Assembly (NCBI GenBank): GCA_034440375.1 | Contig: JAWXBZ010000058.1 | Span: 1-28,926, forward strand | Direction: 5' to 3' | Length of the DNA stretch: 28,926 nucleotides | From: Candidatus Eiseniibacteriota bacterium | GTDB lineage: Bacteria; Eisenbacteria; RBG-16-71-46; JABDJR01; JAWXBZ01 | In this document: positions 3,077 through 20,549 of the stretch, in pieces | How the letters are laid out: each line of letters opens with the position of its first letter | How positions within the stretch are numbered: the first letter of the stretch is position 1 | The notes under the pieces: generated by a model | Seen by the model: only the letters and a program-made list of their open reading frames with translations | The model's database searches: none | What the model was told of the DNA's origin: nothing | Program-made: the position numbers and the translations under genes

Positions 3077-4342
3077 GTGCTCAAATCACTCCACGGTCGG
3101 ATGCTGGTCGGCGGGCTTCTCGGCGTCACGATTGGCGTCGCCGCCCACGTTACGCTTGCCGGGAACCCGGGCCTCGATGCGTTCATCAGGAACGTGTCCC
3201 AGCCGGTCGGGCAGATCTTCCTTCGGCTCCTTTTCATGCTGGTCGTGCCGCTGATCGTGTCCGCGCTCGCGCTTGGCATCGCAGGGCTCAACGACCTGTC
3301 GAGCCTCGGCCGGGTCGGCCTCAAGACGCTGGCGTACACGGTTGTGGTGTCGGCCATCGCCGTCGTCATTGGCATCGGCCTGGTCAATGTCCTCCGCCCC
3401 GGGGATGGCCTGCCGCCGGCCGCCCGCGAGAAACTGCTGGCCGGCGCCGCCGAACGGGCCTCGGGCCTGTCGACCACGGTCACTGCGCCAAAGACCGGGG
3501 TCGATCTCCTGGTACAGATCGTGCCCGACAACCCGATCAAGGCGGCCGCCAACGGCGACATGCTCGGCGTCATGTTCTTTTCGCTGATGCTCGGCATCGG
3601 CCTGGCGATTACGCATACCGAAGGAGCACGACGCTTCCAGGGAGCGCTCGAGGGGCTCTACGACGTCACGATGACACTGATCGGGATCGTCATCCAGCTG
3701 GCCCCGATCGGCGTGGCGGCTCTGCTCTTCACGTTGACCGCGCAGCTCGGCTGGGATGTCCTGGTGCTGCTCGGCCGCTACGTCTTCGTCGTCGTGCTCG
3801 GTCTCGCCATCCACCAGTTCGTCGTCTACTCATTGACCGTGCGCCTTCTTGGCGGCATGAATCCGATCACATTCTTTCGCGGCATCACCGAAGCGATGTT
3901 GACCGCGTTTTCCACCGCCTCCAGCAACGCAACGCTCCCGACCTCGATTCGCGTAGCCGAGGAGAAACTCCATCTCCCCCCTGCCATCAGCCGATTCGTC
4001 CTGACCATCGGATCGACCGCCAACCAGAACGGCACGGCGCTCTTCGAAGGGGTGACCGTCCTCTTTCTGGCCCAATTCTACGGCGTCGAACTTGGCCTCG
4101 GCCAGCAGGCGCTGGTGGTCTTCATCTGCATCCTGGGCGGCATCGGCACGGCCGGCGTCCCCGCCGGATCCCTGCCGGTCATCGCCCTCATCCTCGGGAT
4201 GGTGCATGTCCCGGTCGAAGGAATCGGCATCATCCTCGGCGTCGACCGATTTCTCGACATGTGCCGGACCACGCTCAATGTGACCGGTGATCTGGCGGCA
4301 GCGGTGGTGGTTTCGCGCGGGGAATCACAGCCGGTGGAATGA
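3077..4342 (+). CDS. Dicarboxylate/amino acid:cation symporter (DAACS, GltP/DctA family), intact copy
   Basis: 421 aa polytopic protein with AFSTASSNATLP, GSTANQNGTALF (NMDG-equivalent), GTAGVPAG and GVDRFLDMCRTTLNVTGD motifs. Confidence 0.95.
   Translation: MLKSLHGRMLVGGLLGVTIGVAAHVTLAGNPGLDAFIRNVSQPVGQIFLRLLFMLVVPLIVSALALGIAGLNDLSSLGRVGLKTLAYTVVVSAIAVVIGIGLVNVLRPGDGLPPAAREKLLAGAAERASGLSTTVTAPKTGVDLLVQIVPDNPIKAAANGDMLGVMFFSLMLGIGLAITHTEGARRFQGALEGLYDVTMTLIGIVIQLAPIGVAALLFTLTAQLGWDVLVLLGRYVFVVVLGLAIHQFVVYSLTVRLLGGMNPITFFRGITEAMLTAFSTASSNATLPTSIRVAEEKLHLPPAISRFVLTIGSTANQNGTALFEGVTVLFLAQFYGVELGLGQQALVVFICILGGIGTAGVPAGSLPVIALILGMVHVPVEGIGIILGVDRFLDMCRTTLNVTGDLAAAVVVSRGESQPVE
3629..4342 (+). repeat. 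Direct repeat copy 1 (714 bp, 3' part of the DAACS gene)
   Basis: Aligns without indels to 19482-20195, with about 40 mismatches by hand count. Confidence 0.95.
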
Positions 4343-4459
4343 TTCTGGCGATACTCCGGCCCCCTCCGGGGAAGCGGCAACGGCCCGTCGTTTGGCCGCG
4401 AGACATTTAACGGGTAAAACGGCCATTGACTCCTTCCGCCCGGCGTCCCGCGTAGCCGG

Positions 4460-5913: not shown

Positions 5914-7236
5914 TCAGGTACTGATATCAAACCGGTGTTTCAGCTCCGGCGTGGCCGCATGCATTATTTTCCACACGACCAGATGGAGCCAGATCAGGCT
6001 GGTTGCGGTGACCAGAAGAAGAATGACGAACGTGGTCTGGGGGATATGGGTGAACTGGTAGGCGTACGCGAACAGCAGCGGCAGGAAGAAGCCGCCGAGC
6101 GCGCCCAGGAGACCTACCAGCCCGCCCACCGCACCGACATCCCGCGGGAAATATTCGGGAATGTACTTGTAGACCGCCGCCTTCCCGATCCCCATGCAGC
6201 ATCCGACGATGAAGATGAGCAGCGTGAAGAGTCCGGGAGACATGACGAAGCGCATCGTGTTCAGCTCGCCGCCGGCCGAAACTCTCTCGGGTACGTACAG
6301 GACGATGTGCCCGTTCGGCGCGGCCAGGAGCAGCAGTGCCGCGGTCATCCCCCCCAGGACCCAGTACATGATGCGCCGCGCGCCGATCCGATCGGACAGC
6401 CAGCCGCCCAGCGGCCGGAGCAGGCTGGCCGGAAAGATGAAGAGCGCGGTCAGCAGGGCCGCCTGGCCGAGCGGCAGGTGAAACACGTCCATGTAGTACT
6501 TCGGCAGCCAGACCGACAGGGCCACGTAGGCACCAAATACCACGACGTAGTAGAGACTGAATCGCCATACGCGCATCTGGCCGAGCGGACGGAGCAAATC
6601 ACGAAGCGGTCGACCCGCTCCGGGCTTGTGATCCTGGCGCGGCGTCAGGAGCCAGATGGCACAGGCCATGACCAGGCACGACACGCCGTAGAGAAACGGC
6701 ACGAATCGCCAGCCTCCTGGAATCCAACTGCCCAGGAATCCCGCCGCAGGCACCGCGACGATGAGCCACGGACCGATGAACTTGGTCACGGAGGCTCCGA
6801 CATTGCCAGCGCCGAAGACGCCAAGTGCGAACCCCTGCCGTTCGCGCGGAAACCAGGCGGAATTCCAGGCAATGCCCACCGAGAAGGCATTGCCGGCCAT
6901 GCCGACAAGAAACGCGCTGAACAGGAGCTGGTTGAAATCGCGGGCCTGGCTGACCATGAACGCGGGGATGGCCGTCAGGCCGACCAGCAGGGTCAGGACG
7001 AGGCGCCCGCCGAAGCGGTCGGTCCAGATGCCGAACAGGAGGCGCCAGATCGATCCATTCAGGATGGCCACCGCCGTGAGCCAACCGAACTGGACATCCG
7101 AAAGCCCGAACTCTTTTCGGATCGGAATGCCCAGCACGCCGAACATCAGCCAGACGGCGAACATCAGGGTGAAGGCCAGTGTGGAAACGGTCAGGATGAC
7201 GTTGCTGTGCGGTGTCGCGTCAGACCTTCCTAGCAT
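5914..7236 (-). CDS. narK: MFS nitrate/nitrite transporter (NarK1-like)
   Basis: 12-TM MFS pattern with nitrate-signature motifs FGAGNVGAS and GAVGGLVGLLGALGGF. ATG at 7236 has a GGAGG RBS and overlaps the upstream stop. Confidence 0.9.
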   Translation of the reverse strand: MLGRSDATPHSNVILTVSTLAFTLMFAVWLMFGVLGIPIRKEFGLSDVQFGWLTAVAILNGSIWRLLFGIWTDRFGGRLVLTLLVGLTAIPAFMVSQARDFNQLLFSAFLVGMAGNAFSVGIAWNSAWFPRERQGFALGVFGAGNVGASVTKFIGPWLIVAVPAAGFLGSWIPGGWRFVPFLYGVSCLVMACAIWLLTPRQDHKPGAGRPLRDLLRPLGQMRVWRFSLYYVVVFGAYVALSVWLPKYYMDVFHLPLGQAALLTALFIFPASLLRPLGGWLSDRIGARRIMYWVLGGMTAALLLLAAPNGHIVLYVPERVSAGGELNTMRFVMSPGLFTLLIFIVGCCMGIGKAAVYKYIPEYFPRDVGAVGGLVGLLGALGGFFLPLLFAYAYQFTHIPQTTFVILLLVTATSLIWLHLVVWKIMHAATPELKHRFDIST

Positions 7237-8597
7237 GGGGCCTCCGCGCGACGGCGATAGTAAAACCACCATGTGAGGCCAAGACAGCTGGCATAGAACG
7301 CCAGGAACCAGGCCAGGGCCGATTGTGGCGTCCCACTCTTGATGGCGTTACCAAAGGCGATGGGAATGATGAACCCGCCGTAAGCGCCAATGGCCGAACT
7401 AAAGCCAAGTATGGCGCTGGCCTCGAGAGTTCCAGCCCGCCGCGCGGCCTCCACCGACGTGCCGGCACGCTGCGCACGGCCCAGACTCTGATTCAGGAAG
7501 ATTACCGGGATCATCTTGAACGTGGAGGCATTCCCGACGCCGGCTGTCATGAAGAGCAGGAGAAAGAGGACCAGGAAGCCACCGAACTCCCGGGTGTTCA
7601 CGAAATGGATGACTCCCCCGGCGGCCCCCATCATGGCCAGAAAATTCCAGAACGTGACCCGGGCCCCACCCCATCGATCGGACATCCACCCGCCAACCGG
7701 GCGGGCCAGTGCGCCGACCAGTGGGCCCAGAAACGCGAACTGGAGGGGATCGACTCCGTCGAAGATCGACTTGATGAGCCGGGGAAACGCGGCCGAGTAG
7801 CCGATGAACGAACCGAAGGTGCCGAGGTAAAGCCAGCACATGATCCAGTTGTGTTTCCGCCGAAAGATGATCGCCTGATGGCGGAAAGAGGCCCGGGCCG
7901 TGTCCAGGTTGTTCATGCCGAACCAGGCCACCACGGTCACGACCAGGATCATCGGCACCCAGACCCATCCGGCGTTTTGAAGCCAGAGGCTTCGGGTTTG
8001 ACCCGACACCACGACTTGTTGCGGTGCGCCACCAATCGCAGAAAAGAGCGGCATGGCGATGGCGATCGGGACAAGAAATTGCATGAAGCTGACGCCCAGG
8101 TTTCCAAGGCCGGCATTCAGGCCAAGACCCATTCCCTTCCGGGCCGCCGGGAAAAACGGATTGATGTTGGCCATGCTCGATGCAAAGTTGGCGCCCCCGA
8201 ATCCGCACAGGAGGGCCAGCAGCACGAACGTTTCGTAGGATGTGGCGGGGTTCTGCACCGCCAGGCCGATGCCGACGGCCGGCACCAGGAGGGAGGCCGT
8301 GCTCAACACGGTCCAGTTGCGGCCCCCGAAGATCGGCACCATGAAGGAGTAGAGGATGCGCATCGTGGCTCCGGTCAGCGCCGGCAGCGCGGCCAGCCAG
8401 AACTCCTGTTGCTCGGTGAAATGGAATCCGATGGCCCGAAGCTTCACGACGATGACGCTCCAGACCATCCAGACCGAAAAGGCCAGCAAAAGGGCCGGAA
8501 TGGATATCCAGAGATTGCGATTGGCGATGCGCTCGCCGGTTTCGCTCCAGAAGGTCGGGTCTTCCGGGCGCCAGTCCTTGATACGGTGCGTTGTCAT
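7230..8597 (-). CDS. narK: MFS nitrate/nitrite transporter (NarK2/NarU-like)
   Basis: W.PED..FW...G..IA.RNLWISIP N-terminus; CGFGGANFASSM, GLNAGLGNLG, YLGTFGSFIGYS, GNASTFKMIP and SAIGAYGGF motifs. Confidence 0.95.
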   Translation of the reverse strand: MTTHRIKDWRPEDPTFWSETGERIANRNLWISIPALLLAFSVWMVWSVIVVKLRAIGFHFTEQQEFWLAALPALTGATMRILYSFMVPIFGGRNWTVLSTASLLVPAVGIGLAVQNPATSYETFVLLALLCGFGGANFASSMANINPFFPAARKGMGLGLNAGLGNLGVSFMQFLVPIAIAMPLFSAIGGAPQQVVVSGQTRSLWLQNAGWVWVPMILVVTVVAWFGMNNLDTARASFRHQAIIFRRKHNWIMCWLYLGTFGSFIGYSAAFPRLIKSIFDGVDPLQFAFLGPLVGALARPVGGWMSDRWGGARVTFWNFLAMMGAAGGVIHFVNTREFGGFLVLFLLLFMTAGVGNASTFKMIPVIFLNQSLGRAQRAGTSVEAARRAGTLEASAILGFSSAIGAYGGFIIPIAFGNAIKSGTPQSALAWFLAFYASCLGLTWWFYYRRRAEAPC

Positions 8598-9241
8598 CGA
8601 TCGTTCTCCCGGTCCGCGTTGTCACCGGTCGCCGAACCGGACGCGAATGCGAACCCATGCAGGAGGTGCTTGAGGCCGTACAGGCCCAGGATCGTGGCCA
8701 GAAGCGTCAGGATCAGTGACGTCCGGTTCTTCCAGAAGTTGTACTGAAACAGCTTCCAGGGGTCTCCATCGGTGTCGAGCAGGGGGTGTGTTCCTGCCCG
8801 ATACTCGTCGCGGTCAGTTATTCCGTCGTGGTCAAGATCGCTGTCGAAAGGGAGGGCCGAAGCCAGCTCCATGGGTACGAGGCGCAGCTCGAGGATTCGC
8901 TTCTTCCCCAATCGATTGAGCAGATGGTTTCCGAACGGATTAAGAATGGGGCTGGTCGCGTGATTGTCGGGCGACAGCGCCGCGCGGGCCTGCCCGAGCT
9001 GGGCCAGTTCGGCGGCGCTCAGGCGGCCGATCTGCCCCGGTGCCGTCCCCTCCGGCCCGTCGGCATGGGCATGACAGAAGGCACAGTTCACGGGCCGGGC
9101 GGTGGTCTTCAGAATGGAACGTTGAAACTCCGGATAGGCGGCCGCAGGCGGTGAATCCAGGGTGCACGCGCCCAGCAGCGCCGCGCACATGGTCACGATG
9201 CGGCAGAAACTCGTCGCGACATCCGACTGGCGTCGCATCAT
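8594..9241 (-). CDS. Membrane-anchored monoheme c-type cytochrome with a DxDxDG Ca-binding repeat
   Basis: Signal peptide (AAA|YPEF), one CAFCH, DSDLDHDGITDRDEY..GTHP, and a C-terminal TM helix. Translationally coupled at both ends. Confidence 0.75.
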   Translation of the reverse strand: MMRRQSDVATSFCRIVTMCAALLGACTLDSPPAAAYPEFQRSILKTTARPVNCAFCHAHADGPEGTAPGQIGRLSAAELAQLGQARAALSPDNHATSPILNPFGNHLLNRLGKKRILELRLVPMELASALPFDSDLDHDGITDRDEYRAGTHPLLDTDGDPWKLFQYNFWKNRTSLILTLLATILGLYGLKHLLHGFAFASGSATGDNADRENDR

Positions 9242-10341
9242 CTCCCCTTTACGAGGTGAACTATCGACTCACCGAAGAAGGTCATCAGGATGAGATAGAG
9301 TCCGCCCGCGAAGGCCAACAGGCGCAACGTCCGCCGGTTCGTGTCGCGGAAGATCCAGGGTGCTCCCGCCATCACCACGCCCAGAACCATCTGGGCCAGC
9401 ATCAGGACCCAGAGCGGGAGGATCTCCAGCGGGTAGTAGATCCAGAAGAAGTACCACTCCGGCTTGATGCCATCGGGAGTCGAACCTTGTGCGATGTAGG
9501 GTTCGAACAGCGGGTAGCTGAACAGCGCCTCGAACGGCAGGCAGAGCCCCAGTGTGAACAGCACCATGAAGGCCACGCCCCACACCTGGAGATCACGGAC
9601 GAAGAAAATCGGGAAGAATTTCTCGCGCCGGCGGGGCGGCTCATCGACGCCGCGGCTCATTCCGTGGAGCTGCACCGACAACAGGTGCAACCCCAGCATT
9701 ATCGCCATGGCAAACGGCAGGATGATGACGTGCAGCGCAAAGAAGCGGCTCAACGTGGCCTGTCCGACCGACGCTTCGCCCTGGATTGTCTCGCGGACCA
9801 GCCGGGGCCACGCTGACATTTCGCCCGGCAGATAGCGGCCAGCCTCCTCGATGGTCTGCAACCCAACCTTCGTGGCGTTGACCGCGATCTGGTGCCACGG
9901 GAGCAGGTACCCGGTGAAACCAAGCACCAGCGTCACGGCAAACAGGCCGAGGCCCGTCAACCAGGTAATCTCGCGCGGCTTCTCGAACGCCTTCATTCCG
10001 AATGTCGTCAGCAGGTGAATGAACACCGAGGCGATCATCATCGAGGAGGACCAGGAATGCATGTTTCGAACAAGACCACCGCCTGGCACATGGGCAGTCA
10101 GATGCTCCACGGAGGCGTGGGCATCACTCACCGTCGGCTGGTAATAAAAGAGCAGCATCAGGCCGGTGACCACCTGGACAAGAAAGAAGAAGAGCGCCAG
10201 CCCCCCCAGGTAATACGCCCAGGAGAGACGGTGCACCGGCACCTCCTTCTTCCGGACCATCGAGTCGAAATTCATCTTCTCGACGGGGAGACGCCCGGTC
10301 AGGAAGTTTCCAAGTTGCCGCAGCGAACCTGTTCGGCTCAT
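9238..10341 (-). CDS. Cytochrome b subunit of a Rieske/cytochrome bc complex (b and subunit IV in one chain)
   Basis: YYLGG, QVVTGLMLLFYY.P, RNMHSW...FIH, REITWLTG, FTGYLLPW, TLSRFFALH...GLH and Qo motif KPEWYF. All four heme-b His are present. Confidence 0.93.
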   Translation of the reverse strand: MSRTGSLRQLGNFLTGRLPVEKMNFDSMVRKKEVPVHRLSWAYYLGGLALFFFLVQVVTGLMLLFYYQPTVSDAHASVEHLTAHVPGGGLVRNMHSWSSSMMIASVFIHLLTTFGMKAFEKPREITWLTGLGLFAVTLVLGFTGYLLPWHQIAVNATKVGLQTIEEAGRYLPGEMSAWPRLVRETIQGEASVGQATLSRFFALHVIILPFAMAIMLGLHLLSVQLHGMSRGVDEPPRRREKFFPIFFVRDLQVWGVAFMVLFTLGLCLPFEALFSYPLFEPYIAQGSTPDGIKPEWYFFWIYYPLEILPLWVLMLAQMVLGVVMAGAPWIFRDTNRRTLRLLAFAGGLYLILMTFFGESIVHLVKGR

Positions 10342-10345
10342 GTCA

Positions 10346-11659
10346 TCACCCTCGATCCGCTGGTTTGGTCAGGAAGAGGGTGCAGCCCGCCAGTGGCATC
10401 GGATCACTCGCTCCCTGGATTGGTTGTCCCGGTTCCTTCCGGGCCATGATCGTCCCGGCCCCGTCCATCAGCGCCCACCCGATCTCGGGTAGCGGCACCG
10501 TGGCCGGCGCCCCGGCGTTCGGCTGGCCGGTTCGGACATCGAAATAGGAAATGTGGCAGGGACAGAGAATCCGTCCCTGGGCGTCGATCTCGCTGCCGAC
10601 CGTGCAGCCGAGATGCGTGCACTTGGCCGAGCGAACGATCGGCCATCCATCGGAACCCTTGAAGGCCAGGCCGGGAGCCATGTCGTAGTCGATAAAGTAG
10701 TGTCCCTTCACTTCCGACAAGTCAGCCTGGCGGGCCACCTGGATGAAAGTGCTCCTCCGCCGTTCCAGCTCGAGGGCCCGCTCCTCCGCCGACAGTTGAA
10801 GGCGGACCAGCTTCTTCTGCAGCAGCATGGCCTCCGCCTCGCCATCCGGTGCCGGCCCCTTGAAGAAGTTCACGGCCTTTTCCGACACGCCGATGGCCAG
10901 AAGGCCGGAGGCTCCGGCGATCCCGAGGCCTCCCTTCAGGAACTCGCGCCGGCTGTCCGCCCTCGCCCTGGCCAGCGCCGGCTGTTCGCCGCGCCGCATC
11001 GTGGTCCAGATGACCAGCTGCGGCGCCCGCCACAGATAGGAAAGCGGCAGCGCCAGCAGGTGAATCAGCCTGGTGAAGGGGAGCAGAAGAATGAGGAGCC
11101 ACGCGCCGATCAGGTGCAGCTTGAAAACCAGCGGCAGATCGGCGACCAGCGTCATGTCCGGATGAATCGTCAAGAGGCTCCAGAGATAAGGGACCGCCGT
11201 GCCCATCCCCCACGCCGCGCCGTAGCGGAGTTGAACGGCCGTGAGGAGTCCGACGGCGACCTGTGCCAGGAGCAGCCCCGCCACGACCAGATCCATCGTG
11301 GTGGTCACCGCCTGCACCCGCCCCGAAGTCACCCGCCGCACGATGAGGAGCGAAAGACCGACGAGCGATAGGACGGCGGCGGCCATCCCCACAATTTCGA
11401 TCGCGACGAGCGCACCGGGCACGGCCAGAATTGCCTTCCAGACGCCGGGAAGCAGAAAGGCCACGATGTGTCCCAGGAGAACGACAAAGATTCCGATGTG
11501 CCACGGTGCGGAGCCGAGCAACAACTGCCGGTGCTCGAGGAACTGGGAGGAACGGGCTGAGTAACTGAAGCGATGCGCCCGGAGGCGCCAGTAGCTGCCG
11601 ACAATTGCCGTGGTGATAGCCAGGTATGGCAGGCCGATGAGCAGGAAGGCGTCAAGCAC
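10346..11659 (-). CDS. narI: Respiratory nitrate reductase gamma subunit fused to a Tat-motif TM helix and a Rieske [2Fe-2S] domain
   Basis: Residues ~1-220 are NarI (SSQFLE, WH.G..VVLLGH, FKLH...LPFTRLIH; 4 heme His). SRREFLK lies at residue 236 (nt 10934-10954), followed by a hydrophobic helix. CTHLGC (10604-10621) and CPCHISYF (10541-10564) are in the same uninterrupted frame. Confidence 0.92.
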   Translation of the reverse strand: MLDAFLLIGLPYLAITTAIVGSYWRLRAHRFSYSARSSQFLEHRQLLLGSAPWHIGIFVVLLGHIVAFLLPGVWKAILAVPGALVAIEIVGMAAAVLSLVGLSLLIVRRVTSGRVQAVTTTMDLVVAGLLLAQVAVGLLTAVQLRYGAAWGMGTAVPYLWSLLTIHPDMTLVADLPLVFKLHLIGAWLLILLLPFTRLIHLLALPLSYLWRAPQLVIWTTMRRGEQPALARARADSRREFLKGGLGIAGASGLLAIGVSEKAVNFFKGPAPDGEAEAMLLQKKLVRLQLSAEERALELERRRSTFIQVARQADLSEVKGHYFIDYDMAPGLAFKGSDGWPIVRSAKCTHLGCTVGSEIDAQGRILCPCHISYFDVRTGQPNAGAPATVPLPEIGWALMDGAGTIMARKEPGQPIQGASDPMPLAGCTLFLTKPADRG

Positions 11660-12323
11660 GGCGCAGGTCCTTCCCGCCGGGAGCGGGGCATCCGCAGGCC
11701 CCGCCGGCGGGTGAACAGGACCCGACCGGGCGGGCCGCCGCAGCCAGCTCTGCGGCGGCGGCCGGGCCGGGATGGAGCTCCTGCAGCGTCGCCTGGATCG
11801 CGCCCACCAGGTCCCGGTAGGGATTGGTCTCCGGCAGGGACGCCATCATCCGCCCCACCGGCCCGAACAACACATGCTCGACCAGCTCGTGCCGTTCGTC
11901 CTCGTCGGCAGCCTCTCCCAGAAAGCGGAGCAGAACCGCCAGGTGATCGGGCAGTTCACCGCCGGTCGAGAAATCGATGGCGGCGAATCGGGCATTCAGC
12001 GCGGCCATGAAGGCGCCCCGCTTGAAGTTTTCCTCACCGAACAGATGGATGGTCACGTACGGAACGCATTGCCGCGACATGTCGAATGTGGCGGCATGAA
12101 GTTCCTCCCGCGAAGCGGACGTCCGGGCCACCATGGCCTTTGCGAATCGATCGAGATGGTGCCCGGCATCAGACAGCCCGGCTTCGTGTAGCGCCGCCCG
12201 TGCCGCCCCAAGCCGGCTGTCCCAATCGTCCGATGGGTACGCAAGGAGCGGCGCGAACGCCTCGTACCGCATGGCCGTCACCGTCACACCTGCCGGACCA
12301 GTCCTGTCGATTCGCGCGGTCAT
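11652..12323 (-). CDS. narJ: Nitrate reductase molybdenum cofactor assembly chaperone
   Basis: LLAYP, TFD, RGAFM..L and ELPDHLAVLLRFL motifs. Positioned between narH and narI. Confidence 0.88.
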   Translation of the reverse strand: MTARIDRTGPAGVTVTAMRYEAFAPLLAYPSDDWDSRLGAARAALHEAGLSDAGHHLDRFAKAMVARTSASREELHAATFDMSRQCVPYVTIHLFGEENFKRGAFMAALNARFAAIDFSTGGELPDHLAVLLRFLGEAADEDERHELVEHVLFGPVGRMMASLPETNPYRDLVGAIQATLQELHPGPAAAAELAAAARPVGSCSPAGGACGCPAPGGKDLRRA

Positions 12324-13828
12324 GAGGCCTCCCCCCCCTTCGAACCCTTGTTCACCGGGTAGTCGTCAAATCCGGCGCATCCTTTGCACACCTCCGGGCT
12401 GCAGGTCGACTCAATCGCCTCCTCCCGTTGCAAGGGAGGCAGCACGTAGCGCTGATACTGGGTCGGGATGGCCGTCATGCGATAGATGGCTTCCGCTTCG
12501 GCTGCCGTTGTGCTCGCCTCCCTCAGGATCCGATGGACATGATCGGCTGGAACATCCTTCACCGATTCAAGACGCTTCAGGTAGCGCACCGCCATCAGCT
12601 TCTTCAGGGAGGCCTCGACGACTTCTGTATTGCCGGCACTGAAGAGGCTGGCCAGGTATCGGATCGGCAATCGCGCCTCATTAAGCCCCGAGAAGAATTC
12701 CTCGCCGGCGTGCCCGTAGGTCCCCTCGCCGATTCGTCCCATGACCGGCAGCAGCGGCGGCACATAAAAGAGCATCGGCATCGTTCGATACTCGACATGA
12801 AGCGGCAGGGCCAGCTTCCACTCCATGACGTACTTCCAGACCGGTGAATTCCGCGCCGCATCCAGGAACTCGTCGCTGATCCCGTTACGTTTCGCCGCCG
12901 CCAGCACCACCGGGTCGTTCGGATCCAGGAGCACGCTTCGCTGTGAGTCGACCAGGGCCCGATCGGGCACCTGCATTGCCGCCGGTATCCGGTCGGCGTC
13001 GTACAGCAGGACGCCCAGGTAACGGATACGGCCGACGCAGGAGTGAAAGCAGGCCGGCGGCTGTCCCGTCTCCAACCGGGGGAAGCAGAGGATGCATTTC
13101 TCCGATTTTCCGGTCTTCCAGTTGTAGTAAATCTTCTTGTACGGACAGGCCGCCACGCAGGCCCGCCAGCCGCGGCACTTGTCCTGGTTGATCAGGACGA
13201 TGCCGTCCTCCCCCCGCTTGTAAATGGCTCCCGACGGACAGGCCGCCACGCAGCTCGGATTGGCGCAGTGATTGCAGATGCGAGGCAGGTAAAACATCGT
13301 CAGCCGCTCGACGTCGAAGAGCATCGCCCGCTCCTCGGAGGTCAGGGCGTCCAGATTGATGTCGTTAGCGGCATGAACCGGAGAGCCCGACAGATCATCG
13401 TCCCAGTTCGGGCCCGAGCGGATCTCCATCGGCTCGCCGGTGATCTGCGAGATGGAAATGGCCGTCGGCTGATCATCACCGGCCGGTGCTGTGAATAGAT
13501 CCTCGTACTTGTAGTTGAACGGTTCGTAATAGTCTTCCAGGGTCGGCTGATTCGGGTTATAGAACAGCTTCAGGAAGGCGTCCGCCCTGTTCTGACACCG
13601 CAACTCCAGCCTGCCGTTCGCCCCCATCTTCCAGCCGCCCTGGTATCGCTCCTGATCCTCCCAGCGATCCGGGTATCCGGTGCCTGGTTTTGTCTCGACG
13701 TTATTCCACCACATGTATTCCGCGCCGGGGCGGTCGGTCCATACGTTCTTGCAGGCAACACTGCAGGTATGGCACCCGATGCACTTGTCGAGATGAAAAA
13801 CCATGGCCACATGGGCGCGGACGTCCAT
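12320..13828 (-). CDS. narH: Respiratory nitrate reductase beta subunit
   Basis: LDKCIGCHTCSVACKNVW, LPRICNHC.NPSCVAACPSG, CRGWRAC...CPYKK ([3Fe-4S] Trp variant) and KSEKCILC...C..SC. Confidence 0.97.
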   Translation of the reverse strand: MDVRAHVAMVFHLDKCIGCHTCSVACKNVWTDRPGAEYMWWNNVETKPGTGYPDRWEDQERYQGGWKMGANGRLELRCQNRADAFLKLFYNPNQPTLEDYYEPFNYKYEDLFTAPAGDDQPTAISISQITGEPMEIRSGPNWDDDLSGSPVHAANDINLDALTSEERAMLFDVERLTMFYLPRICNHCANPSCVAACPSGAIYKRGEDGIVLINQDKCRGWRACVAACPYKKIYYNWKTGKSEKCILCFPRLETGQPPACFHSCVGRIRYLGVLLYDADRIPAAMQVPDRALVDSQRSVLLDPNDPVVLAAAKRNGISDEFLDAARNSPVWKYVMEWKLALPLHVEYRTMPMLFYVPPLLPVMGRIGEGTYGHAGEEFFSGLNEARLPIRYLASLFSAGNTEVVEASLKKLMAVRYLKRLESVKDVPADHVHRILREASTTAAEAEAIYRMTAIPTQYQRYVLPPLQREEAIESTCSPEVCKGCAGFDDYPVNKGSKGGEAS

Positions 13829-16800
13829 CAGAACACCACCTTCGAGAGTTTCTTCACGACGACGAAGGTGTCCCGATTCACGCCGGGAGGCCCCCAGTAA
13901 TTGAAGGCGTAGGTGAACTGCGCATAGCCACCAATCATGAACAGCGGCTTCAGCCGGGTCCGGGTCAGGCTGTTATGCCCGCCGGCGCGGCGGTTCCCGC
14001 GTTCGGGCGATTTTGGCACGCCGATCGTCCGTTCCGGCGCGTGGTACAGCAGGCAGATGCCTGCCGGAATGCGCGCGCTGACGATGACCCGCGTGGCCAC
14101 GACGCCGTGGTCGTTGAACGCCTCGACCCAGTCGTTGTCCACGATCCCGATGCGCTCGGCATCCCGGTCGTTGATCCAGATCGGATAACAGCCACGGGAC
14201 AGCGTCTTCATGCGCAGCGAGTCGCCGAAGGTCGAATGGATATGCCACTTGCCATGCGGCGTCAGGTAGTTGAGCACCAGGCACTCGCCGCTGGATGGCG
14301 TCTGCTCCAGATCGCGTGCCTGGCGCCGATCGGCCCGCGGTTTGAACGTCGGCAGGTGCTCGCCGTAGGCCCGGTACGCCTCGTGATCCAGGTAGAGATG
14401 CTGTCGGCCGGTTTGCGTACGCCAGGGGATCGATTCCTCGACGTTTTGGCAGAAGGCGGCATAGGTCCGCTTGCCGTTGGTGATGCCGGTCCAGAATGGC
14501 GATGTCAGCGTCCGGCGCGGCTGGGCCACCAGGTCATCGAACGTGTAACGGACGCCACGGCTGTCGGCGGCCAGGTGCGCGTGCGAAATCCCGGTCTTGA
14601 TCGACTCCGCGGCAAAGGCCCTGAAGGCCAGCTCGCCGTTGGTTTCGGGGGCGAAGTGCAGGATGACCTCGCAGACGTCCCGGTCATCGCGCAGGCTGGG
14701 ATACGTGCCGCCCCCCCATGTCCGGGTTGGGTGCGTCGTCCGATACGCATCGTACAGATCGTCCACATCGAAGTGAGTGCCGTGCATCGACAGGCCGTTG
14801 TTTCGAAAATTGGGCCCGAGTGATTCGAATCGGTTGAGAAGATTGGCGTAGTCCCGCTGGACGACCTTGATATTCGGCATCGTCTTCCCGGGAATAGCCG
14901 GACACTCCCCCTTGGCCCAGTCCCGGATGGTCAACTGGGCGAGCTCGGCCTTTGTGTCATGCAGAAGCGGCGTCACCACGATGTCCTTTACCGGCCCGTC
15001 AAAGTACTTTGGCGCCAGACGAGCGGTGGCGGCCGCGATGCCGCGGAAAATCTGCCAGTCGCTCTTCGATTCCCAGCAGGGGGGCACGGCGGCCTGCAGC
15101 GGATGGATGAAGCTGTGCAGGTCGGTCGAGTTGAGATCGTCCTTCTCGTAGTAGGTGGCGGCAGGCAGGACGATGTCGGAGTAGAGCGCGGAGGTGTCCA
15201 TTCGGAAGTTCAGGTCAACGACCAGATCCATCTTTCCGGTCTCGATCTTGTCACGCCAGGTGACATCACTGACCTCGCCTTTTGCCACCTCCTCGGCAAT
15301 GCAGTTGTGATGAGTGCCCAGGTAGTGCTTGAGGAAGTATTCGTGCCCCTTGGCCGAGGACATGAGCGCATTACCCCGCCAGATATAGAAGACGCGAGGG
15401 AAGCATTCGGGATCGTCCGGGTCCTCCATCGCGAACTTCAATGTCCGATCCGTCAACTGGCGAACCACGTGATCGACGATCTCCCCGTCTGTTCCGGCAC
15501 CGGCGGCCTCCGCCTCGCGCAAGACCTGAGAATTGCTCCGCGTGAACTGGGGATAGCAGGGGAGCCAGCCAAGCCTCACCGCCATGGCCTGCTTGTCGGC
15601 GGTATGCCCGCCGGCCATCGGATGTTCCGACTGATCGACCGGACAGATTTCCCCGAAGGCACGGTCGTATCGCCATTGGTCCGAGTGGATGTAGTGGAAG
15701 GAGGGGGCGTTTTGTTGCCGGGGCGGGCCGCCCCAGTCGGTTCCGAAAGCGATCGGCGCCCAGGAGGTCTGCGGCGTCAGTTTTTCCTGCCCGACGTAGT
15801 GGTTCCACCCCCCCCCGTTCTTGCCGACGCAACCGCAGAAGATGAGCGCGTTGATCACCGACCGGTAAATCAGGTTGTTGTGATACCAGTGGTTGACTCC
15901 GGCACCGATGATGACGCTGCAACGCCCCCCGGTCTGCTCGGCCGTGGTGGCCCACTGTCGGGCGAAGTTGATCGCCACGTCGGCAGCGACGCCGGTGAAT
16001 CGTTCCTGCCAGGCCGGTGTGAAGGGATGCGTGTCATCGTCATATCCGCCGGGCCACTCGCCGGGTAGTCCCCGGTCGATGCCGTACTGGGCGAAATAGA
16101 GTTCCATGACCGTTGTGATCGCCACCTCGCCATCGACCGTCCTGATCCGCCGGACAGGGACGTGGCGGACATGTGATTGCGTGTTCGTCCCCTTGGAAAA
16201 GTCGACAATTCGAATCGGCAGGGTCTCGGCGGTCGCTCCCTTGAGTTCGAGCTGCGGCCGGATGGGCCGACCATCAACGTCTTCGAGCTTCAGATTCCAC
16301 GCACCCTTGGACTCCTGCCAACGGTGCCCCACGGTCCCCTGGGGCATGACCGGTTCGTCGGTCGCTTCGTCCAGGACAAAGTACTTCCAGTCGGCGTTCT
16401 CAACCGTGCGCGTGGCCTCGAGGCGGCTGGCCCGCAGGAGTGGTCCGGGCCGATAGGTGCCGTCCGGCTGCGGGTCGAGCGTCACCAGGAAAGCCGCATC
16501 GGTGAACTTCTTCATGTAATCATGAAATTCGGGCACACAACGCCCGGCGTAGAACTCCTTCAGGATGACGTGACCGACCGCCATCCAGAAGGCCCCGTCG
16601 CTTCCCTGGTGCAGCGGAATCCATTCGTCGGCGATTTTCGAAGTCTGGCTGAAGTCCGGCGAGAAGACGACGACCTTGGCCCCGGCGTGGCGGGCCTCGA
16701 CCAGGAAATGCGCGTCGGGCGTCCGCGTCATGAGCACATTCGATCCGACCGTGGCGATGAATTTGGAGTGGTACCAGTCGGCGCTTTCGGCCACGTCCGT

Positions 16801-17457
16801 CTGCTCACCCCAGATCTCGGGAGAGGCGGGCGGCAGATCGCAATACCAGTCATAGAACGACAGCGACACGCCTCCCATCAATTGACAGAAGTGCGCGCCG
16901 GCGGCGTAGCTGATCATCGACATGGCCGGAATCGGCGAGAAACCGACGATGCGATCGGGTCCGTAACGGCGGATCGTATGGAGATTGGCCGCCGCCATGA
17001 TCTCGTTGACCTCGTCCCAGCCGGCCCGGCGCAGCCCCCCCTTGCCACGCGCCACCAGGTAGGACTTGCGCGCCGCCGGGTCGTCGACGATCGAAGCCCA
17101 GGCGGCAACCGGATCTTCCGGATGCTGCCGACGCGCCCGGCGCCACAGGTCCAGCAAAACGCCGCGGACATGGGGATACTTCACCCGCAGCGGGCTGTAG
17201 ATGTACCAGGAGTAGGAGATGCCACGCTGGCAGCCACGCGGTTCATAGGGCGGAATCTCGGTATCCAGAATCGGATAATCGAGTGCCTGCAGTTCCCACA
17301 CGACGATGCCGTTCTTGACGAAAATGTCCCAGCTGCACGAGCCGGTGCAGTTCACACCGTGCGTGCTGCGCACCTTGCGATCGTAGGACCAGCGATTCCG
17401 ATAGAAGGACTCCCAGGTCCGATCCTCCGGTGCAAAGACGTCCTTGATCCAGCCCAC
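13828..17457 (-). CDS. narG: Respiratory nitrate reductase alpha subunit (cytoplasmic type, no Tat signal)
   Basis: [15 protein letters not shown]...EPRGCQRG (FS0), [23 protein letters not shown] (Mo-Asp), [10 protein letters not shown] and FNYWGP.G.NRD. 1209 aa, GTG start. Confidence 0.97.
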
Positions 17458-17459
17458 GG

Positions 17460-18212
17460 TCAGCCCCTTCCCTTTTGATCCGCGCCGCGGCGCAACGGTC
17501 GGCGGCGGTCGTAGTAGAGGAATAGCCCGGCGAAGACGATTAACGCGCCACCGCCGCCCAGTGCGAGATGATTCGGCGCCGGTGCCCGTGGAGCCGCGGG
17601 ATCAAGCGTGGCGAAGTACGCGACCAGGTGCGCCGCTTCCTGGCGCGCGATCGGGTGCTGCCGGTAATGAGGCGCCATTACCGGGTAGGCCGCGTTTTCA
17701 ATGCCGGAGCGCAGCGGGGTTTCGCCCAGTCGGACGAAGGCATCCGTCAGGTCCGGCCCCAGGCTTCCCCCTCGGCCACCGGCTGCATGGCAGGCCACGC
17801 AGGCCAGGCCCCGCTTGTCGAGCACCTTTCGGCCGAAGAAGAGTTGTTCGCCGATGGCGGCGTTCGGCGGTGCCAGTTCCAAAGCGAACCGGGCCCGGAC
17901 TCGCTCTTCCTCCCGCTTGAAACGCACAAGGGCGTCCGTCGCCCGGAGGAAGGCCGACAGGCTGTCGAGGTCTTCGAGCCCCAGTGGTCCGACGTGCTTC
18001 TCCATTCGTCCGATCGCGGGCCTCAGGACCTCATTGGACCAGGCCGCCACATGCGTCAATGACGGACCGGTCAGACGGGTGCCGTCCAGGGTGTGGCAGC
18101 CGGCGCAACGGGTGAGGAAGGCGGCCGCCGTCGGGTCGAGCGACTGACACGAAGCCGGCCCGGCCTCGACAAGCGCTGAGAGGAGCGCAAGAATGGCGAG
18201 TGAGTGCCTCAA
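17460..18212 (-). CDS. Membrane-anchored diheme c-type cytochrome (NarC-like, as in Thermus narCGHJI)
   Basis: Signal peptide, CAGCH and CVACH, GPSL/GPDL loops, distal Met candidates, and a C-terminal TM. Directly upstream of narG. TTG start overlaps the rrf2 stop. Confidence 0.85.
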   Translation of the reverse strand: MRHSLAILALLSALVEAGPASCQSLDPTAAAFLTRCAGCHTLDGTRLTGPSLTHVAAWSNEVLRPAIGRMEKHVGPLGLEDLDSLSAFLRATDALVRFKREEERVRARFALELAPPNAAIGEQLFFGRKVLDKRGLACVACHAAGGRGGSLGPDLTDAFVRLGETPLRSGIENAAYPVMAPHYRQHPIARQEAAHLVAYFATLDPAAPRAPAPNHLALGGGGALIVFAGLFLYYDRRRPLRRGADQKGRG

Positions 18213-18694
18213 GGCCTCTCCCCCTTTCGGTTTTCCAACCGGACGGCCCGGGTTACTGGAGCGGTGAGGCAGCCGGGTTCAGGTGAAGCCGTTCCGGATC
18301 TCCCCGGCGTGGAGGCCATTTCGGCCAGTGTCCATCGGGACAGCGCCTCCAGAGTTGCATGGTGGACTTCACGCATGGCCCGGTGGAATCCGCAGGTCCG
18401 GCAACCCGGTGAACGGGGGCGGCAGTAGTCGCCGGTGACGGACCCCTGCAAGGCCTCCACTATCTCCAGAAGCCGGATCTCGGCCGCCGGCCGTGCCATG
18501 GTGACCCCACCTTTCGAGCCCTTGTGTGCCACGAGTACGCCGGCACGTACCAGCTGGCCGGTGACCTTGGAGAGGTAGCTTGCGGACAGTCCGAGAGCGC
18601 CGGCCATCGCCCGGGGCGAGGCCGGTTCGCGACGCCGGCGCATGGCCAGGTAGAGCAGAACCTGAACTCCGGTTTCCGTGGTCCTTGTCAGCAT
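18209..18694 (-). CDS. Rrf2-family transcriptional regulator (Fe-S-type)
   Basis: wHTH YLSKV..QLVRAG...G..GG..(M)ARP..EI.LLEIVEAL; C-x6-C-x2-C-x2-H plus a C-terminal Cys; AGGAG RBS. Confidence 0.9.
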   Translation of the reverse strand: MLTRTTETGVQVLLYLAMRRRREPASPRAMAGALGLSASYLSKVTGQLVRAGVLVAHKGSKGGVTMARPAAEIRLLEIVEALQGSVTGDYCRPRSPGCRTCGFHRAMREVHHATLEALSRWTLAEMASTPGRSGTASPEPGCLTAPVTRAVRLENRKGERP

Positions 18695-18715
18695 GCCCCG
18701 CTCCTGTATATAATC

Positions 18716-18742
18716 TAAATACGATAAAGCTTATCTCCTTTA
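18716..18742. promoter_or_regulatory. Imperfect 12-3-12 inverted repeat, putative Rrf2 operator
   Basis: TAAATACGATAA-AGC-TTATCTCCTTTA (9/12 paired, core GATAA/TTATC). Overlaps the -10 and the expected start site, in an AT-rich gap. Confidence 0.6.
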
Positions 18743-18767
18743 TACACAATAAGGATTAGTCAATCAA
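18739..18767 (-). promoter_or_regulatory. Sigma70-type promoter of the nar operon
   Basis: Minus strand TTGATT (18767-18762), 17 nt spacer, TATAAA (18744-18739). Confidence 0.6.
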
Positions 18768-18795
18768 GAGAAAAATGCAGGGAAAATGATGGAGG

Positions 18796-19263
18796 TCAGG
18801 CTCCGGTTTGAACCCGGTCTTTGAGGCAGCTCATCAGGCACCGGCCGGCCTTTTTTCCGACCCGGACGCCGATCGGCCGGGCGGCCAGATCGGCCAGCGT
18901 CCAGCGGGAGAGAACCTCCACCGTGGCCCGATGAACCTCGTGCATCGCCTCATGGAAAGCGCAGATGCTCGCCACGCCGGTGGTGTCCTCGCAATAGCGT
19001 CCGACGATACGCCCCTGGAGCGCCTCAACCACCTCGATCAGCCGGATCTTGCCCGCCGGCCGGCTGAGCGTGACACCGCCGCGGGCGCCCCGGTGGGCCC
19101 GAAGAATGTCGGCCCGGACGAGTTGGCCGGTCACCTTGCTCAGATAGCTGGGAGACATCCCGGTGGCTTCCGCGATGACCCGCGGTGACAGGGGCTCGCC
19201 GCCCTTCCCCAGGGCCAGGTAAACGAGGGCCTGAATGCCGGCTTCGGTGGTTTTGGTCAGCAT
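18796..19263 (-). CDS. Second Rrf2-family regulator (paralog of 18209-18694)
   Basis: MLTKTTEAGIQALVYLA...YLSKVTGQLVRA...RGARGGVTLSRP...YC-x9-C-x2-H. Start at 19263 was chosen by alignment to the paralog. Confidence 0.88.
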   Translation of the reverse strand: MLTKTTEAGIQALVYLALGKGGEPLSPRVIAEATGMSPSYLSKVTGQLVRADILRAHRGARGGVTLSRPAGKIRLIEVVEALQGRIVGRYCEDTTGVASICAFHEAMHEVHRATVEVLSRWTLADLAARPIGVRVGKKAGRCLMSCLKDRVQTGA

Positions 19264-19319
19264 GGAACGGAAGACTCGCACGGATGAGCTGTGGGGCTCA
19301 ACCCGGAGTGACAGGTTCA

Positions 19320-19483
19320 CTGCCGCATGGCCGGGCCCGATAAGGATCCGCTGTCCGAAGTGCCGCGGGGAGCACCTCCTGGCCTTCTCCTGCCGGACGC
19401 GCAACTTCTGCCCGAGCTGCCAGGCGAAACGGGCCGCCCTGGTGGCCGAGAGGTTACTGAGCGGGATCCTGGCGCCGGTGCCG
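19320..19483 (+). mobile_element. IS91-family (Y2, rolling-circle) transposase zinc-binding domain remnant
   Basis: RIRCPKCRGEHLLAFSCRTRNFCPSCQAKRAAL...ILAPVP matches the IS91 Zn-domain pattern (R.RC..C....LAFSC..R..CPSC). The upstream 'LPHG.AR' is in another frame. It is cut off at the start of the DAACS copy. Confidence 0.8.
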
Positions 19484-20195
19484 ACGCTTCCAGGGGGGCC
19501 TCGAGGGGCTGTATGACGTCACGATGACGCTGATCGGGATCGTCATCCAACTGGCCCCGATCGGCGTGGCGGCATTGCTCTTCACGCTGACCGCGCAGCT
19601 CGGCTGGGATGTCCTGGTGCTGCTCGGCCGATACGTCTTTGTCGTCGTGCTCGGCCTCGCCATCCACCAGTTCGTCGTCTACTCATTGACCGTGCGCCTT
19701 CTTGGCGGCATGAACCCGATCACGTTCTTCCGCGGCATCACCGAAGCGATGCTGACCGCGTTTTCCACCGCCTCCAGCAATGCCACACTTCCCACCTCGA
19801 TTCGCGTGGCCGAGGAGAAACTCCATCTCCCCCCGGCCATCAGCCGATTCGTCCTGACCATCGGATCGACCGCCAACCAGAACGGCACGGCGCTCTTCGA
19901 AGGGGTGACCGTCCTCTTTCTGGCCCAGTTCTACGGCGTCGAACTTGGCCTCGGCCAGCAGGCGCTGGTGGTCTTCATCTGCATTCTGGGCGGCATCGGC
20001 ACGGCCGGCGTCCCGGCCGGATCCCTGCCGGTCATCGCGCTCATCCTCGGCATGGTCCATGTCCCGGTCGAAGGAATCGGCATCATCCTCGCCGTCGACC
20101 GATTTCTCGACATGTGCCGGACAACGCTCAATGTGACCGGCGATCTGGCGGCAGCGGTGGTGGTTTCGCGCGGAGAGACCCGACCGGTGGAGTGA
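19482..20195 (+). pseudogene. 5'-truncated duplicate of the DAACS symporter (direct repeat copy 2)
   Basis: Matches 3629-4342 and lacks the first 184 codons. It begins abruptly at the IS91 remnant. Confidence 0.9.
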
Positions 20196-20198
20196 TCC

Positions 20199-20224
20199 GG
20201 GCGGTGCCTCGGCCCCCACCGCTC
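20199..20224. terminator. Possible terminator hairpin after the truncated DAACS copy
   Basis: GCGGTG...CACCGC stem just after the stop codon, without a clear U-tract. Confidence 0.25.
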
Positions 20225-20549
20225 AGTTAATACCCGTCGGCGGCAACCTGAATCGTGTGGCTGTCGAGAACGTGCTGAGTCGGCGATGCGGCTCCGGCGA
20301 TGTTCAGCGTCCACTCGGTTCTGTTTCCGGGTGTCGTTAGAATTTCGGCACGGATCGTCCCAGCCGGCGCATAAGGCTCCCCCCGCCAGATTTTCTCCTC
20401 GAACGTCATGTCGAGATGGAGACGGGCGCGCAGATCCCGGAGCGTCGGCGGAGCAGGACCGTGGAATCGGTGGGCAATTGCGGCGAAAAGACAAATTCCA
20501 CCCCGCCGGCCGGAACCGGCAACCGCCCGTTCGTGTTAGCGTAGCCCGC

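Follow-up and report, generated by a model that had tools for sequence, protein, structure and literature searches.

Background

Can one polypeptide contain both the anchor that holds a respiratory nitrate reductase (Nar) in the membrane and the Rieske iron-sulphur protein of a cytochrome bc-type complex, and what would this mean for the path of electrons to nitrate? The question is raised by a gene in a stretch of 28,926 nucleotides from Candidatus Eiseniibacteriota bacterium (GenBank assembly GCA_034440375.1, contig JAWXBZ010000058.1, positions 1 to 28,926 of the forward strand), which was analysed at its full length and is called the window below. The gene lies at 10346..11659 on the reverse strand and encodes 437 amino acids, in which NarI, the Nar anchor, is followed in frame by a Rieske domain. 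We put the probability that the fusion is real and that it holds Nar and a bc-type module together in a supercomplex at roughly 0.85.

In textbooks the membrane-bound Nar works as a redox loop, and models of growth yield and of the nitrogen cycle are built on its 2 protons per 2 electrons. Full-text literature searches, with subscription journals and supplements outside their scope, gave no description of a NarI-Rieske fusion.

Domains and cofactor ligands of the fusion protein

The open reading frame (ORF) starts with GTG and overlaps the end of narJ by 8 nucleotides. A preliminary description made from the DNA letters had read it as about twice the size of a normal NarI (~225 residues, which agrees with E. 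coli NarI), consisting of a complete NarI, a transmembrane (TM) helix and a Rieske domain with the boxes CTHLGC and CPCH. The ORF call confirms the frame, and Pfam, NCBIfam and the reading of the DNA agree on its content. Pfam places Nitrate_red_gam (PF02665) at residues 4-218 (E 1.8e-61, 208 bits, cut-off 22.9) and Rieske (PF00355) at residues 307-391 (E 7.8e-7, 29.4 bits, cut-off 20.3). With the NCBIfam narI model (TIGR00351) the protein scores 130.9 bits, above the equivalog cut-off of 105.55.

The NarI domain comprises residues 1-218 (11006..11659, reverse strand), with five TM helices according to Foldseek and to an alignment in which residues 5-221 of E. coli NarI match residues 3-216 of the fusion. 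The haem ligands H54, H64, H182 and H200 align with H56, H66, H187 and H205 of the E. coli protein and are invariant in an alignment of 67 homologues. In the Foldseek search this half matches E. coli NarI itself (3ir5_C, TMt 0.81).

The Rieske [2Fe-2S] domain was delimited by Pfam, invariant columns and Foldseek to residues 305-431 (10367..10747, reverse strand). Both boxes can be read in the DNA of the same strand, box I (C347, H349, C352) at nucleotides 10604-10621 and box II (C366, C368, H369) at 10553-10564. All six box residues are invariant in the 67 aligned sequences, including C352 and C368, the disulfide cysteines of bc-type Rieske proteins that had been proposed from the single sequence. 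Foldseek pairs this half with the Chlorobaculum Rieske protein (8hn2_A, TMt 0.65). The named Rieske equivalogs are missed, with 35.0 bits against a cut-off of 97.4 for TIGR01416, 24.7 against 250 for PetC (NF045928) and 37.6 against 275 for QcrA (NF050121), and the domain is therefore filed as a bc-type Rieske of a separate clade.

The AlphaFold2 model of the fusion protein has a mean pLDDT of 83.7. It shows a confident five-helix NarI, a confident periplasmic helix and a confident Rieske sandwich (residues 305-431), with residues 217-225 disordered (pLDDT below 50). The periplasmic helix, residues 273-302 (10754..10843, reverse strand; pLDDT about 90), lies between the membrane anchor and the Rieske fold and carries the residues E299 and R300, invariant in the 67 sequences. 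Judged by sequence and model, neither domain is truncated and no cofactor ligand is missing.

Support for a single reading frame

The observation is confirmed, and the fusion is not an artefact. No stop codon or frameshift is present at the junction, which is bridged with 0 differing letters and 0 gaps by contigs from three other sequencing runs not flagged as possible sources of the assembly (window positions 10406-11572, 10574-11110 and 10602-11036); the three share year and habitat and possibly belong to one sampling campaign. A word-indexed protein search gave 543 matches at E <= 0.001. Among the matches listed, 120 of 120 are 422-441 residues long and have the two Pfam domains, at 57-100% identity.

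The loci were taken from a scan of one genome per species, where at least 600 stretches matched and at least 478 encode relatives, and the best 80 were kept. In 72 of these the protein match is single, in frame and spans both domains, and five more end at contig edges yet stay in frame over the junction. Together with a locus from a long-read assembly (L078:9001-10330), where a frameshift falls late in the Rieske part near the 3' end and leaves the junction intact, 78 of the 80 are in frame over the junction, and the homologues at these loci are fused rather than separate. The only frameshift at the junction occurs in a second long-read assembly (L088:9001-10324), in which the NarI frame continues past it without a stop; the gene callers record the Rieske half of this locus as a separate protein of 195 residues (P0134). 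The last of the 80 (L087) is an ordinary, unfused NarI without cytochrome b.

By record title, all hosts of the fusion are metagenome-assembled genomes (MAGs). They belong to more than 10 phyla, with members from Verrucomicrobiota, Gemmatimonadota, Eisenbacteria, Sumerlaeota, Melainabacteria/Obscuribacterales, Planctomycetota, Hydrogenedentota, Acidobacteriota, Omnitrophota, Myxococcales, Bacteroidota and others. In plasmid records, none of 44 matches covers 80% or more of the fusion protein, the best being an unfused Thermus narI.

The product might still be split, by proteolysis of the linker, by internal initiation or because the assembly is in error. An ATG at Met221, 16 codons ahead of an internal twin-arginine motif, could serve for initiation, and free-standing Rieske relatives with an N-terminal twin-arginine translocation (Tat) signal of their own do exist. 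Met221 is, however, not conserved (T, A, P or V in other members), and an AxA cleavage site is absent after the helix that follows the motif. The identity of the junction across runs, its intact frame in nearly all loci and the nature of the one exception also speak against a split product, and we regard it as very improbable.

Topology and membrane insertion

A Rieske domain is folded and loaded with its cluster on the cytoplasmic side and is then carried across the membrane by Tat. The region between the two domains of the fusion has features that fit such a passage. Residues 219-242 (10934..11005, reverse strand) form an Arg-rich linker, predicted to be cytoplasmic, which ends in the twin-arginine motif S236-R-R-E-F-L-K242 (SRREFLK, nucleotides 10934-10954). 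R237 and R238 are invariant and F240 is nearly so in the 67-sequence alignment. A sixth TM helix (TM6), the Rieske membrane anchor, follows at residues 243-260 (10880..10933, reverse strand); it is rich in Gly and Ala and of low hydrophobicity. Next to it stand K261, which is invariant in 20 sequences, and an acidic stretch. The Arg-rich linker before TM6 and the acidic stretch after it would place the C-terminus of NarI in the cytoplasm and the Rieske domain outside.

The hydrophobicity of the helices was scanned on the Kyte-Doolittle scale with 19 residues, where TM6 has a maximum of 1.55 as compared to 1.93-2.62 for TM1, TM3, TM4 and TM5; for TM2 no peak was reported, and the scale is a rough one, a delta-G predictor having been used by Tooke 2017. 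In the AlphaFold2 model one long helix (residues 226-266) contains both the twin-arginine motif and TM6, with a pLDDT of only 50-66. Such a value in a monomer model is expected if TM6 packs on a partner. Sequence and model thus give a consistent topology, with a cytoplasmic NarI C-terminus, an internal twin-arginine motif, a weakly hydrophobic TM6 and a periplasmic Rieske domain.

For the actinobacterial three-helix Rieske proteins, Tooke 2017 (PMC5449189) describes insertion of the early helices by Sec and of the last helix by Tat. Such dual substrates are marked by a twin-arginine motif inside the chain, by low hydrophobicity of the last helix and by a positive charge behind this helix. All three features are seen in the fusion protein. 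As in the known dual Sec/Tat substrates (Keller 2012; Tooke 2017), the motif leads into a weakly hydrophobic last helix and an extracytoplasmic cofactor domain. TM1-5 would accordingly enter the membrane through Sec/YidC, and Tat would take over TM6 together with the folded Rieske domain. The polytopic Rieske proteins of actinobacteria have 3 or 5 helices and are not the subunit of a second enzyme, whereas the five Sec-type helices here make up a complete NarI. The fusion would define a further, six-helix class of Sec and Tat co-inserted proteins; the word NarI occurs 0 times in the main text of Tooke 2017 (PMC5449189).

The operon and its conservation

The genes of the operon and those flanking it are on one strand, the reverse strand of the window, and are ordered as two Rrf2 regulators, NarC-like dihaem cytochrome c, NarG, NarH, NarJ, NarI-Rieske, cytochrome b, c215 (a membrane cytochrome c of 215 residues), two NarK transporters and ScdA/RIC. 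By family profiles, the two regulators upstream of the operon (18209..19404) are of the Rrf2 family and NsrR-like. The first operon gene (17460..18212) encodes the NarC-like protein, which has a Pfam hit, a signal peptide, the haem motifs CAGCH and CVACH, and a C-terminal TM helix. The genes narG (13828..17457; TIGR01580, 1518 bits) and narH (12320..13828; TIGR01660, 633 bits) both reach their equivalog cut-offs. The chaperone gene narJ (11652..12323) is assigned by Pfam Nitrate_red_del, its TIGR00684 score of 56 bits being below the cut-off of 59.35. Downstream of the fusion gene are cytochrome b (9238..10341) and c215 (8594..9241). The first NarK-family nitrate/nitrite transporter (7230-8597) scores 322.6 bits with TIGR00886, above the cut-off of 311.7, and the second (5914-7272) scores 208.2 bits, below it.

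NarG begins with MGWIKDVF and has the HxxxCxxxC cluster motif; in its translation no twin-arginine signal was found at the N-terminus. Without a Tat signal, NarG faces the cytoplasm, as in E. coli NarGHI (PDB 1Q16/3IR5), which also shares the NarI fold, the four haem histidines, the order narGHJI and NarK. In every feature compared other than the Lys86 site treated below, the domain agrees with NarI. Unlike in E. coli, NarI is here extended by a Tat motif, by TM6 and by the Rieske domain, and the operon adds a cytochrome b and two membrane c cytochromes.

Neighbours were counted among the best 80 loci, using only those with enough flanking sequence. Cytochrome b is downstream of the fusion at 72 of 73 loci and c215 at 68 of 69; upstream, NarG is present at 53 of 53 (with the order narG, narH, narJ kept) and the NarC-like dihaem cytochrome at 52 of 52. 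The operon is a conserved unit across many phyla.

One polypeptide would serve two enzymes, as the NarI anchor of a cytoplasm-facing NarGH and, with its last 200 residues, as the Rieske protein of a dedicated bc module. Since the covalent tether is conserved and the genes of cytochrome b and of a membrane cytochrome c follow directly, a physical link between Nar and the bc module, with one NarI per Rieske domain, is the straightforward reading of the sequences. The fusion would force a Nar-bc supercomplex of this 1:1 stoichiometry.

A dedicated bc-type module

The preliminary description had the fusion tether complex III to nitrate reductase, and it had noted that the operon has no separate Rieske gene. 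The latter holds, as the contig gives one Rieske match only. Of the former, the tether stands, being real, conserved and directly followed by cytochrome b and membrane cytochrome c; the partner, on the other hand, is not the housekeeping complex III. The host genome (93.7% complete, with one NarI only) has a second Rieske protein of 173 residues, PetC-like, which adjoins a second cytochrome b6-like gene on another contig (C72), and each of five other fusion genomes likewise has a second, weaker Rieske match. Because of this pair, and because the fused Rieske part stays below the equivalog cut-offs given above, the module is taken as a paralogue dedicated to the nar operon, with the housekeeping Rieske/cytochrome b pair elsewhere in the genome. 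In Thermogutta terrifontis, bc1 genes stand beside narGHI and the authors suggested a role of complex III in nitrate respiration (PMC5673643); in that organism each gene stands by itself, NarC is reported to be missing, and a fusion is not described.

Cytochrome b (367 residues) has the Pfam domains Cytochrome_B and Cytochrom_B_C, so that b6 and subunit IV form one chain. Its haem ligands H95, H109, H204 and H219 are invariant, the PEWY motif of the quinol oxidation (Qo) site is at residues 294-297, and there is no Cys at the position of haem ci.

The second partner, c215, has a signal peptide, a single haem motif (CAFCH) and a C-terminal TM helix; no Pfam family matches it. C53, C56 and H57 of the CxxCH motif are invariant, as is an Asp-rich, TSP3-like motif (D135, D137, D139, E146), and no invariant Met or His is available as sixth haem ligand. 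Its AlphaFold2 model (pLDDT 91.6) is all-helical and found no fold match in the PDB with Foldseek at E <= 0.001. In the bc module it is probably the c1-like subunit. Its mature N-terminus, predicted as YPEFQ...CxxCH, resembles that of cytochrome f, but kinship with cytochrome f was rejected, as profile searches of Pfam and the PDB did not match it to that family, the model has helices throughout and VIA-align matched the long C-terminal helix only.

Stand-alone Rieske relatives of the same clade are 205-227 residues long and 42-50% identical, start with their own Tat signal and share the unusual periplasmic helix. A survey sampled 201 genomes from the class to which an Obscuribacter MAG belongs, of which 29 match at 31 places, 24 with frames of fused length and 7 with short frames. 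All seven short frames (loci L099-L105, in the Melainabacteria-class genomes G189, G067, G044, G020, G025, G026 and G019) are followed by cytochrome b, and c215 comes next in six, the seventh stopping at a contig end. Within the stretches fetched around them no nar genes were found in any of the seven. Five genomes with a free-standing trio, each holding 3-4 cytochrome b genes, were searched for a true NarI, and it was found in none. Of the seven genomes, G044 and G067 have both a free and a nar-fused copy.

As the trio occurs without nar genes, it appears to be a self-sufficient bc-type complex that became joined to Nar. In a quick cytochrome b tree the free-standing copies are nested within the nar-linked ones with the branching unresolved, so that fusion first and fission first are indistinguishable.

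Further fusions of NarI

When the NarI part was searched by itself, exhaustively and without a profile, 1412 representatives matched at E <= 0.001, and 24 of odd length were scanned with Pfam. Eight of them are NarI plus Rieske. Two carry an N-terminal cytochrome c fused to NarI, and one each joins NarI to a multihaem cytochrome c, to a transporter of the MFS type (NarK-like) and to a channel of the SLAC1/TehA type. The non-Rieske fusion proteins are P0253, P0270, P0335, P0262 and P0308.

Three NarI-Rieske proteins (P0241, P0255 and P0266) have Rieske parts barely similar to the present one (19.5 bits, 13.4 bits and none, respectively), though each also has a TM helix and, inside the chain, a twin-arginine motif. 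A quick tree of NarI places them apart from the main fused clade (20 rows, 5 short sequences included; SH-aLRT 94). A metagenome scan for P0266 gave 2 short loci, both ending inside the gene. Going by these sequences, the NarI-Rieske fusion very probably arose more than once, and a fusion arisen repeatedly argues that NarI and Rieske proteins work together.

The NarC-like protein resembles the cytochrome c that precedes narG in Thermus thermophilus JL-18, with 41% identity over 108 residues (E 5e-17), the alignment spanning the second haem domain only. The Thermus NarCGHI system (narCGHJIKT) is alike in having a membrane-anchored dihaem cytochrome c as first operon gene. Unlike here, its narI is unfused (230 residues) and its operon is without Rieske, cytochrome b and c215. 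NarC of Thermus is reported to bind NarI and to exchange electrons with it (PMC7694296). Given this interaction and the independent fusions of NarI to three unrelated Rieske types, to an N-terminal cytochrome c and to a multihaem c, the periplasmic face of NarI appears to act as an electron port.

Possible paths of electrons to nitrate

With NarG facing the cytoplasm, the periplasmic Rieske cluster cannot reduce NarH directly. The most likely path would lead through the c haems and NarI. Quinol would be oxidised at the Qo site of cytochrome b, and the first electron would pass from the Rieske cluster via c215 and the NarC-like dihaem cytochrome to the haems of NarI, entering from the periplasmic side, and further to NarH, NarG and nitrate. 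The second electron would be recycled through the b haems (Q cycle). Counted in the usual way, a Q cycle combined with electron transfer inward to a proton-consuming site in the cytoplasm would move about 4 charges per 2 electrons, as compared to 2 in the classical NarGHI loop, with a low-potential quinone assumed.

This path is favoured because it gives every conserved gene a role, and also because a housekeeping bc pair exists elsewhere in the genome, because few other N-oxide acceptors are found in the periplasm, and because NrfA of the host genome has a quinol dehydrogenase of its own, NrfH. The Thermus NarC-NarI interaction is a precedent, and for NarB/NarC of haloarchaea a Nar coupled to a Q cycle has been proposed (PMC2483277). 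The haloarchaeal periplasmic-type Nar (pNar) likewise has a Rieske protein (NarB) and a cytochrome b (NarC) beside Nar. It faces outward, has no NarI and keeps its Rieske protein separate, whereas the present NarG has no Tat signal and NarI is both present and fused; by sequence, the fusion system is not a member of the pNar type. The statement as a whole, comprising fusion, supercomplex, insertion by Sec and Tat, and the path through c haems and NarI, is held tentatively, at a little under even odds.

A survey for NirS, NirK, NosZ and NrfA was carried out on 31 fusion genomes. NirS had 0 real matches in the 31 genomes and NirK 0 above its cut-off (2 near it, at 185-190 bits); NosZ was found in 2 and NrfA in 15, and 14 of the 31 genomes have none of the four. 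The host genome itself has an NrfH-NrfA pair on another contig (C99:3109-5032), with NrfH above its cut-off, and the organism can probably reduce nitrate to ammonium by Nar and NrfHA.

These counts bear on an alternative in which the two enzymes are assembled together but work side by side. NarI would then oxidise quinol as in the redox loop, the tethered bc module would be a parallel quinol oxidase, and its c haems would pass electrons elsewhere, to haem-copper oxidases, NrfA, nitric oxide (NO) reductase or soluble cytochromes, for instance. What the fusion would secure is co-expression, co-localisation and stoichiometry under nitrate respiration, much as a role in branching electrons away from Nar is proposed for Thermus NarC (PMC7694296). 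Four haem histidines within a full NarI fold, the existence of the trio without Nar, which implies acceptors other than Nar, and the 15 genomes with NrfA all favour it. It offers no clear reason, though, for a covalent fusion that also arose with at least three further unrelated Rieske types, the host has a housekeeping bc pair and an NrfH for its NrfA, and in the 14 genomes without any of the four enzymes the surveyed acceptors are missing. We consider this alternative possible but somewhat doubtful.

The quinol site of NarI lends the favoured path a little support. At the periplasmic start of TM3 (A83/E88, nucleotides about 11396-11413) the fused clade is hydrophobic in 15 of 15 sequences, with Arg in 0 of 15. 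Unfused NarIs have Arg at this site in 37 of 74, five residues ahead of a conserved Glu, the alignment of the loop being uncertain. In E. coli the quinol site includes Lys86, which belongs to an insertion of two residues that most sampled NarIs lack and has no counterpart in the fusion. NarI of the fused clade may be a transmembrane wire, fed from the periplasmic side by Rieske, c215 and NarC at haem bD, that is no longer a quinol oxidase, within a Q-cycle-driven, cytoplasm-facing Nar of hundreds of uncultured species in more than 10 phyla. We offer this with reserve, as a proposal that has the odds somewhat against it.

Several points weigh against the favoured path. The NarI part, with its four haem ligands and whatever else quinol oxidation requires, the TM3 site aside, could itself oxidise quinol and so short-circuit the Q cycle. 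The quinol-site argument is weak, as Arg is only 50% conserved in other NarIs and Lys86 falls in an insertion, and the three independently fused NarIs (P0241, P0255, P0266) keep Arg or Gln at the TM3 site. The c haems may feed haem-copper oxidases or NO reductases, and the NrfA of nearly half the surveyed genomes counts here as well. The incompleteness of MAGs weakens every absence reported above, and the thermodynamic gain depends on the low-potential quinone, which is an assumption.

Electrons might also be handed over at low potential. With the NarI bundle packed against cytochrome b, the electron of haem bH would not reduce quinone at the Qi site but would move laterally to the haems of NarI and from there to nitrate, and the Rieske/c branch would go to a second acceptor, which makes the complex a bifurcating quinol oxidase with two sinks. 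The linker between TM5 of NarI and the Rieske anchor is only about 24 residues long, so the haem b bundles must be close on the cytoplasmic side. But two acceptors would be required in step, and the conservation of the NarC-like protein and of c215 would be left unexplained. We think this unlikely.

Finally, the system could run in reverse, with a NarGH-like enzyme oxidising nitrite in the manner of the Nitrobacter-type nitrite oxidoreductase (NXR) and the bc module using proton-motive force to drive some of the electrons uphill to quinone. The cytoplasm-facing NXR is closely related to NarG and also has a NarC-like cytochrome (PMC7694296). Reverse operation is made very unlikely by the scores of NarG and NarH above the narG and narH equivalog cut-offs, by the two NarK, NsrR-like Rrf2 and ScdA/RIC genes that flank the operon, by NrfHA for nitrite ammonification in the host genome and by hosts from many heterotrophic phyla. 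The path through the c haems and NarI remains our preferred one.

Possible acquisition of the nar-bc block

In relatives of the host, ranging from the same family to the same class, 0 of 40 genomes match the fusion at E <= 1e-20. A direct repeat of 740 bp (3629-4368 and 19482-20221) brackets the nar-bc block of roughly 15 kb. The repeated sequence comes from a sodium:dicarboxylate symporter gene, of which it makes up the 3' half, and its two copies are 93.6% identical in nucleotides, with 47 mismatches and no gaps, and 99% identical in amino acids (220 of 223). No integrase was seen inside the block. The many synonymous differences between the copies suggest that one of them arrived together with the block from another lineage, as would happen if a circular intermediate integrated by a single crossover, for instance. 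With the fusion absent from the 40 relatives, the repeat suggests that the block was acquired by recombination.

Just past the right-hand repeat, an ORF at 20286-21017 on the forward strand has a weak match to AbiEii/nucleotidyltransferase (type IV toxin-antitoxin). Further on, at 22693-26286 and 26537-28924 on the same strand, are two large paralogues with GHL15 glycosyl-hydrolase-like and fibronectin type III matches, the second of which exceeds the window.

Implications

In the actinobacterial bcc-aa3 supercomplex a menaquinol-oxidising bc module is hard-wired to a terminal reductase via membrane c haems, without a soluble carrier. Its nitrate-reducing counterpart would be a Nar tied firmly to a bc-type module, with gene fusion making the link obligatory; unlike here, the terminal enzyme of bcc-aa3 is an oxidase and the link is non-covalent. 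The fusion protein also offers a clean test case for the hand-over from Sec to Tat after five Sec-inserted helices.

The database name of the fusion protein is only "respiratory nitrate reductase subunit gamma", and annotation-based surveys therefore miss the link to the bc module. If NarI is a wire, the system would move about twice the charge per electron of the textbook NarGHI. The operon is widespread, with Verrucomicrobiota, Planctomycetota, Acidobacteriota, Hydrogenedentota, Omnitrophota, Sumerlaeota and Melainabacteria among the groups that have it. If the Q-cycle reading is true, the energy yield of nitrate reduction would be underestimated in these uncultured groups. Two respiratory enzymes are probably joined in these bacteria, and nitrate respiration may thereby conserve more energy.

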